Origin: Escherichia coli 042
GTDB lineage: Bacteria > Pseudomonadota > Gammaproteobacteria > Enterobacterales > Enterobacteriaceae
DNA: 64,000 nt
Assembly (NCBI RefSeq): GCF_000027125.1
Contig: NC_017626.1
Direction: 5' to 3' (one strand)
The notes below the pieces were generated by a model. The model had not been told where the DNA came from. It did no database searches and worked only from the letters and a program-made list of their open reading frames with translations. The position numbers were made by a program, and so were the translations under genes. This document shows positions 35,250-35,420 of the stretch, piece after piece. The number at the start of each line of letters is the position of its first letter. Position 1 is the stretch's first letter.

Positions 35250-35420
35250 TTGTTGGGCAAATATTGGTAGAGTCAGAGCACGAAAGTTAATACCACGTTC
35301 GCACAGCTCCTCCAACAGCACGGCAAGATGCCGCATACTGCGCCCCAGTAGGTTCAGTTTGCAGACAACCAGTGTGTCACCTACCGATAATGTCCTGAGC
35401 CGTTTGTTCAGTCCGGCCCT
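35250..35420 (-). pseudogene. Remnant of a serine recombinase (Pin/Hin-type invertase)
   Basis: Minus-strand translation gives [37 protein letters not shown], matching the Pin core [37 protein letters not shown], then stop; no intact N-terminal catalytic region in frame. Confidence 0.55.

Follow-up and report, generated by a model that had tools for sequence, protein, structure and literature searches.

Between the autotransporter gene ypjA and the ypjC-like gene of Escherichia coli 042 lies a short stretch of recombinase-like sequence, which raises the questions of what gene it comes from, whether it can still act and which mobile element left it there. The window, which is the whole stretch of 64,000 nucleotides of contig NC_017626.1 that was analysed, carries this sequence on its minus strand. 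The initial annotation had described it as a decayed serine-recombinase (Pin/Hin-type) fragment at 35250-35420 and as the footprint of an older inversion system or prophage. The genes on both sides are as described there: ypjA (30281-34984) and ypjCB (35789-37243), which covers DUF5507 and DUF5508 and is interrupted by a stop, flank the fragment and are both encoded on the minus strand. In this strain ypjCB is interrupted between 36886 and 36896, and the copy of strain KE55 is labelled "frameshifted" by RefSeq; the gene is intact in O157:H7 and is split into ypjB and ypjC in K-12.

The fragment is very probably pinH, the dead remains, without function, of a phage gene for a tail-fibre DNA invertase in the Pin/Gin/Hin/Cin subfamily of serine recombinases. 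Pin (e14), Gin (Mu), Hin (Salmonella) and Cin (P1) are Fis-dependent serine DNA invertases, which switch tail fibres or flagellin. The relic (35272-35421, minus strand) is an internal 150-nt piece of an invertase gene, which corresponds to codons 42-91 of about 184 and covers about 27% of the protein. Its serine-recombinase nature and its strand are confirmed by a match to the Pfam model Resolvase PF00239 (E 2.3e-8, 34.7 bits with a cutoff of 23.3, profile positions 48-100 of 145), by the match of its peptide to residues 39-93 of the Gin DNA-invertase structures 4m6f/3uj3 (E 1.8e-13) and by a blastn alignment to pinE, in which 129 of 150 positions (86%) are identical between 35272-35421 of the window and pinE nt 123-272. 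The reference pinE is the intact gene of L004, an e14-like phage-plasmid. A tblastn search with the intact PinE protein as query, which had been suggested as a check, gives 39 identities in 53 residues (74%) for PinE residues 39-91 at 35271-35429. The place of the fragment stands, with limits at 35272 and at 35421/35429 instead of those first given, and about 50 residues (codons 42-91) are recognisable, not the 35 or so that were claimed. Translation of the minus strand of 35150-35600 gives one open frame of about 60 codons that ends in a stop, as the initial annotation had also noticed; the end of this residual frame (35247-35271, minus strand) is formed by eight unrelated codons (LPIFAQQ), which have no pin homology, and by the stop at 35247-35249.

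Homology over the catalytic domain (Resolvase N-terminal) places the fragment in the DNA-invertase subfamily, as residues 42-91 of this domain in Pin, Gin, Hin and Cin are 62-74% identical to it. Transposon resolvases of the Tn3/gamma-delta TnpR type are covered by PF00239 together with the invertases, and an IS element adjoins the fragment, so an origin from such a resolvase instead of a DNA invertase has to be considered. This origin is very improbable, since the gamma-delta/Tn3 resolvases match the peptide only with E values of 0.05-0.5, far from that of Gin, the protein and DNA identities to pinE are as high as given above, and the best phage and plasmid matches are all annotated invertases beside tail-fibre genes. 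The closest intact genes to the pinH piece adjoin invertible tail-fibre segments.

This relic is already known, and the K-12 pseudogene pinH (b2648) is its orthologue. In K-12 MG1655 it is found at 2783065-2783304, between ypjA and ypjB/ypjC and upstream of ileY, and the region of the window is colinear with this locus, with 91% nucleotide identity across 1 kb. The locus, the flanking genes and the breakpoints are all alike and the differences are allelic only: the K-12 frame reads on for about 16 further unrelated codons where the window allele stops. E. coli KE55 is 100% identical to the window over 801 nt around the feature, and RefSeq labels its equivalent of 35271-35429 (minus strand) as an incomplete "recombinase family protein" with the N- and C-terminus missing. 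The label of an incomplete recombinase is also given in O157:H7 and in three other strains. Literature searches on "pinH" found nothing relevant. What is added here to the known pinH is the stub of an IS3 element and a fossil attachment site of Fels-2 type, which are both described below.

Several parts that an invertase needs are missing from pinH. Codons 1-41, which include the active-site Arg8 and the Ser9/10 nucleophile, are absent, and an IS3 remnant with in-frame stops takes their place; the initial annotation had rightly found no match to the expected N-terminus upstream in this frame. The D-R-x-x-R motif, which is formed by D64, R65 and R68 of PinE (DRLGR), is preserved in neither allele: the window reads NLLGR and K-12 reads NRLGR, so the window allele has R65L on top of the D64N of K-12. 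On the 3' side of codon 91, where the E-helix and the C-terminal helix-turn-helix domain belong, tblastn, blastn and local alignment found no pin homology. With the 5' 122 nt of the invertase gene deleted, the Fis-dependent enhancer region, which is found in the 5' part of invertase genes, would be largely or entirely missing. The 26-bp crossover sites (pix/gix/hix) have no match to TTCTCCCAAACCNNGGTTTGGGAGAA in the window with up to 3 mismatches allowed, the crossover core AAACCNNGGTTT occurs at chance level with none nearby, and no convincing inverted repeats are found in 29500-38500. The flanking inverted-repeat recombination sites that had been proposed as a test were thus not found by the inverted-repeat search or by the two consensus patterns; the positive control, the intact pinE locus of L004, shows the expected 20-nt inverted repeat with copies 1.8 kb apart. 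With Ser9, the E-helix, the helix-turn-helix domain and both crossover sites gone, pinH cannot catalyse inversion. It does nothing as a recombinase and is no inversion switch, since the nucleophile, the DNA-binding domain, the crossover sites and the invertible segment are all lacking and the catalytic motif is mutated.

Two candidates for displaced pieces of the gene were rejected. A frameshifted 3' extension, suggested by the frame-2 peptide DSTNICPTM, which resembles DSIDTSSPM of Pin, scores 16 when 35150-35271 is aligned to pinE nt 273-555, and the mean of shuffled sequences is 15.9. A displaced N-terminus was suggested by a weak tblastn match of Pin residues 5-25 at 35607-35669 (E 0.05); this DNA is an arm and terminator of Fels-2 type with 96% conservation, so the match is due to chance.

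The open frame of about 60 codons could also be the visible remainder of an intact recombinase gene that is masked by a sequencing or assembly error, and the initial annotation had itself named such a frame as a result that would overturn its reading. The chance of this is negligible: six independent complete genomes share identical breakpoints, as do about 3000 complete genomes, and the flanks consist of IS3 and unrelated DNA, not of frameshifted pin. The shared breakpoints and the flank alignments already refute a hidden intact gene.

The 5' junction of the relic is made by an internally deleted IS3 remnant (35420-35515, minus strand), which consists of the left terminal repeat and IS3 nt 531-622. 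The left terminal repeat is present at 35500-35515 as an exact 16-nt copy, TGATCTTACCCAGCAA, of which 18 nt are kept in K-12. The segment 35420-35510 (minus strand) corresponds to IS3 nt 531-622 in the 5' part of orfB, with 80 of 92 positions identical (87%) by blastn. Where the remnant abuts pin codon 42, the boundary is sharp and the two sequences overlap by 2 nt. In many genomes, sequences annotated as "IS3-like element IS3 family transposase" match the remnant over 85 nt, and at the protein level it matches IS3/IS3H transposases. The exact left repeat of 16-18 nt and the identity to nt 531-622 are what it shares with IS3 (1258 bp, IS3 family), whereas about 514 nt are lost internally, at a TTACCC microhomology, and everything beyond nt 622 including the right end is gone, so it is not mobile. 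The two terminal repeats, the orfA/orfB pair with its programmed frameshift and the 3-bp target duplication of a full IS3 were not found, and the element is a remnant only. The alignments show that pinH lost its 5' end at an illegitimate, sharp junction to a copy of IS3, that this copy was itself cut to its left terminal repeat and about 90 nt of orfB, and that the 3' end of pinH was lost at a second sharp breakpoint.

The age of these truncations can be judged from an alignment of the locus in six E. coli genomes, which are the window, K-12, O157:H7 F6321, YZLc1-3, XDL and 13E0780. The six alleles are up to 10% divergent and every breakpoint is common to all of them, so the truncations are older than the split of the E. 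coli lineages sampled here. Within the pin frame, the variable sites are spread over codon positions 1/2/3 as 9/9/8, and the frame is frameshifted in YZLc1-3; the even spread and the frameshifted allele show that the pinH fragment drifts neutrally. The fragment has little functional weight, being neutral junk that annotation pipelines already flag. Of 5426 complete E. coli genomes, about 3000 have the locus at a coverage of at least 80%. A search of genome contigs with the exact IS3-pin junction pattern, which is too strict for other alleles, gives at least two matches, to L009 and L010. These are a Terrisporobacter mayombei contig (NZ_JAHZMP010000086.1, 539 nt, coverage 0.74) and a contig of a Planococcaceae MAG (DEQI01000374.1, 2799 nt), respectively, both 90% identical to the pinH locus of E. 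coli, with the IS3-pin junction included, and they are almost certainly E. coli contamination in Firmicutes assemblies.

On the opposite strand, an ORF of 122 aa (35167-35535, plus strand) is antisense to the fragment, as had been stated, and runs opposite to both the IS3- and the pin-derived coding sequence. Its last 53 codons (35374-35535) are annotated in RefSeq as the hypothetical protein WP_000075277.1. The ORF could be a genuine gene for a small protein, born de novo opposite the dead IS3/pin sequence, as it is open in 4 of 6 alleles despite the divergence of up to 10%, part of it is annotated by RefSeq, and it lies between a consensus promoter-like site (35117-35146) and a strong plus-strand terminator (35617-35654). 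A gene of this kind is nonetheless unlikely to a high degree. The ORF has no Pfam match, it is frameshifted in YZLc1-3 and altered at the C-terminus in 13E0780 (2 of 6 alleles), its variable sites fall on the codon positions as 19/18/22 with no enrichment of third positions, and the K-12 annotation makes no call for it. The promoter-like sites are at chance level, with 3 found and 2.6 expected, and former coding sequence often has long ORFs on its antisense strand. Both the ORF and its 53-aa RefSeq protein are most likely spurious, and the lesson for annotation is that the 122-codon ORF and the 53-aa call are most likely artefacts of dead coding sequence on the antisense strand.

About 200 nt beyond the IS3-replaced end of pinH, a second kind of fossil is found, which bears on the origin of the invertase. 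The segment 35591-35670 is a fossil ssrA core followed by the phage arm of an attachment site of Fels-2 type, oriented like the functional ssrA (3384-3746). The core (35591-35613, plus strand) is a degenerate ssrA 3' end and is recognised by alignment with K-12 and with ssrA/Fels-2. The K-12 core reads TTCAGTCACTGCCAGC-CCACCA followed by AATAA and that of ssrA/Fels-2 reads TTCAACTCCCGCCAGCTCCACCA followed by AATAA, with the same 5-nt spacer. The core is clear in K-12 and in other alleles, where 17-18 of its 23 positions survive, with the identical AATAA spacer and the arm behind them, and other alleles retain complementary subsets of the ssrA core bases. In the window allele, which is more degraded here than K-12, the core is barely recognisable after substitutions and a deletion of 6-7 nt, and 55 of 57 nt of the arm are kept. 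No other segment of the locus varies as much as the core, in which 17 of 24 columns are variable.

The arm (35614-35670, plus strand) is a 57-nt segment of Fels-2/P2-like (Peduoviridae) ssrA attachment sites. It is 95-96% identical to 31 records of phage genomes, mostly Peduoviridae of Klebsiella, Escherichia, Salmonella and Yersinia, and in the Klebsiella phage records among the matches listed it lies at the very end of the record. In CP019275.1 a gap of 5 nt separates the match from the end of ssrA, and the genes ogr, D, U and T of a P2-like prophage come next; in Fels-2 the arm corresponds to nt 29-83, just past the annotated attP core at nt 1-23. An ssrA 3' copy that is directly followed by a phage arm is thus found in K-12 and other alleles, and in the window with a badly decayed core. 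The arm includes a plus-strand hairpin (35617-35644) with a T-run to 35654, which has a fold of -23.7 kcal/mol and a z of -4.3 and is presumably a terminator supplied by the phage behind the rebuilt ssrA. Searches of 29500-38500 by blastn and tblastx found no other homology to Fels-2 or CP019275, neither to adjacent phage genes such as ogr and D nor to a cognate integrase. The K-12 (NC_000913.3) counterpart of the fossil site lies at about 2783455-2783545, and no feature is annotated there in K-12 or at this site in the RefSeq records examined; the K-12 annotation has only psaA, a 14-nt ssrA duplication at the CP4-57 end. CP019275.1 itself is a 37-kb circular "plasmid" that consists of chromosomal recN-bamE-smpB-ssrA and a P2-like prophage with many frameshifted genes; it probably represents a piece of chromosome that was misassembled or excised.

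Between the IS3 end and the fossil core lie 75 unassigned nt (35516-35590), which vary little among the six alleles and may be an arm of a later-integrating element. Neither 35516-35613 nor 34985-35271 has homology to phage genomes, Fels-2 or CP019275.

The fossil site leads to a tentative account of the whole locus, to which slightly less than even confidence is given: pinH, the IS3 stub and the fossil core with its arm may record one or two successive P2-like prophages at ssrA, which entered before the E. coli radiation and were then lost through a deletion of about 26 kb associated with IS3. The source of the invertase would be a P2/Fels-2-like prophage with its attachment site in ssrA. A single deletion, of about 26 kb on the circular Fels-2 map, would have run from invertase codon 41 through to the attachment site. 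It would have taken with it the first 41 codons of the invertase, the crossover sites and the tail-fibre segment that they invert, the genes for baseplate, lysis, head and replication, and the integrase. CP019275.1, Fels-2 and Klebsiella Kp48xx carry both the arm and a pin-like invertase, 7-9 kb apart, and in arm-carrying phages the Pin-like invertase has the sheath gene FI on one side and the tail-fibre genes on the other. In Fels-2 (Felsduovirus, Peduoviridae) and the ssrA P2-like prophages the 57-nt arm is 95-96% identical and the invertase is on the same strand relative to the arm. Both pieces of the window fall on the same Fels-2 strand (35281-35420 at 7391-7530 and 35616-35670 at 29-83), a co-orientation that is expected by chance in 50% of cases. 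In contrast to Fels-2, no other phage part is left in 29500-38500, the invertase identity is 77% only, and the pin piece and the arm stand in a permuted order, not that of a single integrated Fels-2, so tandem or successive integration must be assumed. A second element would have entered the ssrA rebuilt by the earlier Fels-2-like prophage and would later have been mostly deleted; the deletion would cross the junction of the two successively integrated elements, with the IS3 remnant as its scar. The link of pin to a Fels-2-like phage is circumstantial and is plausible but not proven.

A different source for the pin fragment, which is possible though doubtful, is a prophage or island integrated at ileY, or an e14/Mu/P1-type element, in which case the adjacency to the ssrA fossil and the co-orientation would be coincidental. 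The 3' end of ileY (37995-38070, minus strand) faces the ypjCB-pinH-ypjA block, the order of the relics is unlike that of a single integrated Fels-2, and the closest invertase genes by DNA identity are the e14-type pinE (86%) and that of the unclassified Caudoviricetes phage vB_EcoM-606R2 (85%), not those of Fels-2, CP019275 and Kp48xx (77-83%, with Fels-2 at 77%). Invertase nucleotide identity was rejected as a guide to the parental phage, as e14-type, unclassified and P2-like genes all fall within 77-86% and are uninformative. Neither an ileY-derived repeat nor an integrase remnant is seen near the fragment, the sole nearby attachment-site fossil is of ssrA type, the phages with that arm also bear pin-like invertases, and the orientation agrees with the Fels-2 circular map. 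Of the footprint at the ileY side that was first proposed, the mobile-element relic holds, and the evidence points to ssrA more than to ileY, as the attachment fossil nearby (35591-35670) is of ssrA type.

If the P2-like origin at ssrA is true, ypjA-pinH-ypjCB would be the oldest layer of a tandem stack of islands at ssrA, and K-12 would have a second, unannotated duplication of the ssrA 3' end besides psaA. The value of the locus is modest and archaeological: the pin piece, the IS3 stub and the fossil attachment site would be the scars of an ancient P2-like prophage in the ypjA-ypjCB block downstream of ssrA, and they illustrate how integration hot spots build up layered remains. Island traffic at the tmRNA gene was reportedly treated by Williams in J Bacteriol in 2003.

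Directly behind ssrA, the window has a 26.5-kb island (3747-30280), which begins with a tyrosine integrase (3871-5142) and also encodes DUF3644, a MobA/MobL relaxase (10352-11860) and DUF6387 proteins. The island resembles an integrative mobilizable element, and no duplicate of the ssrA core, of 14 nt or more, was found at its right end. KE55, which is identical at the pinH locus, is without this island.

Some minor observations concern the ypjA side and a distant part of the window. The segment 35137-35240, about 100 nt upstream of ypjA, has 6% variable columns in the six alleles, compared with 15-21% in pin, IS3 and the other flanks, and may be a constrained regulatory region of ypjA or a recombination tract. 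In the ypjA upstream region, RefSeq has a hypothetical protein of 39 aa (WP_001120794.1, 34920-35039, minus strand), which is probably a spurious call; it overlaps the start of the longest ypjA ORF (GTG at 34984), and the equivalent of the RefSeq ypjA start is 34855. At 46305-46381 (plus strand), the window matches the Rfam model naRNA4 (CssrE, nucleoid-associated noncoding RNA 4) with 70.4 bits.
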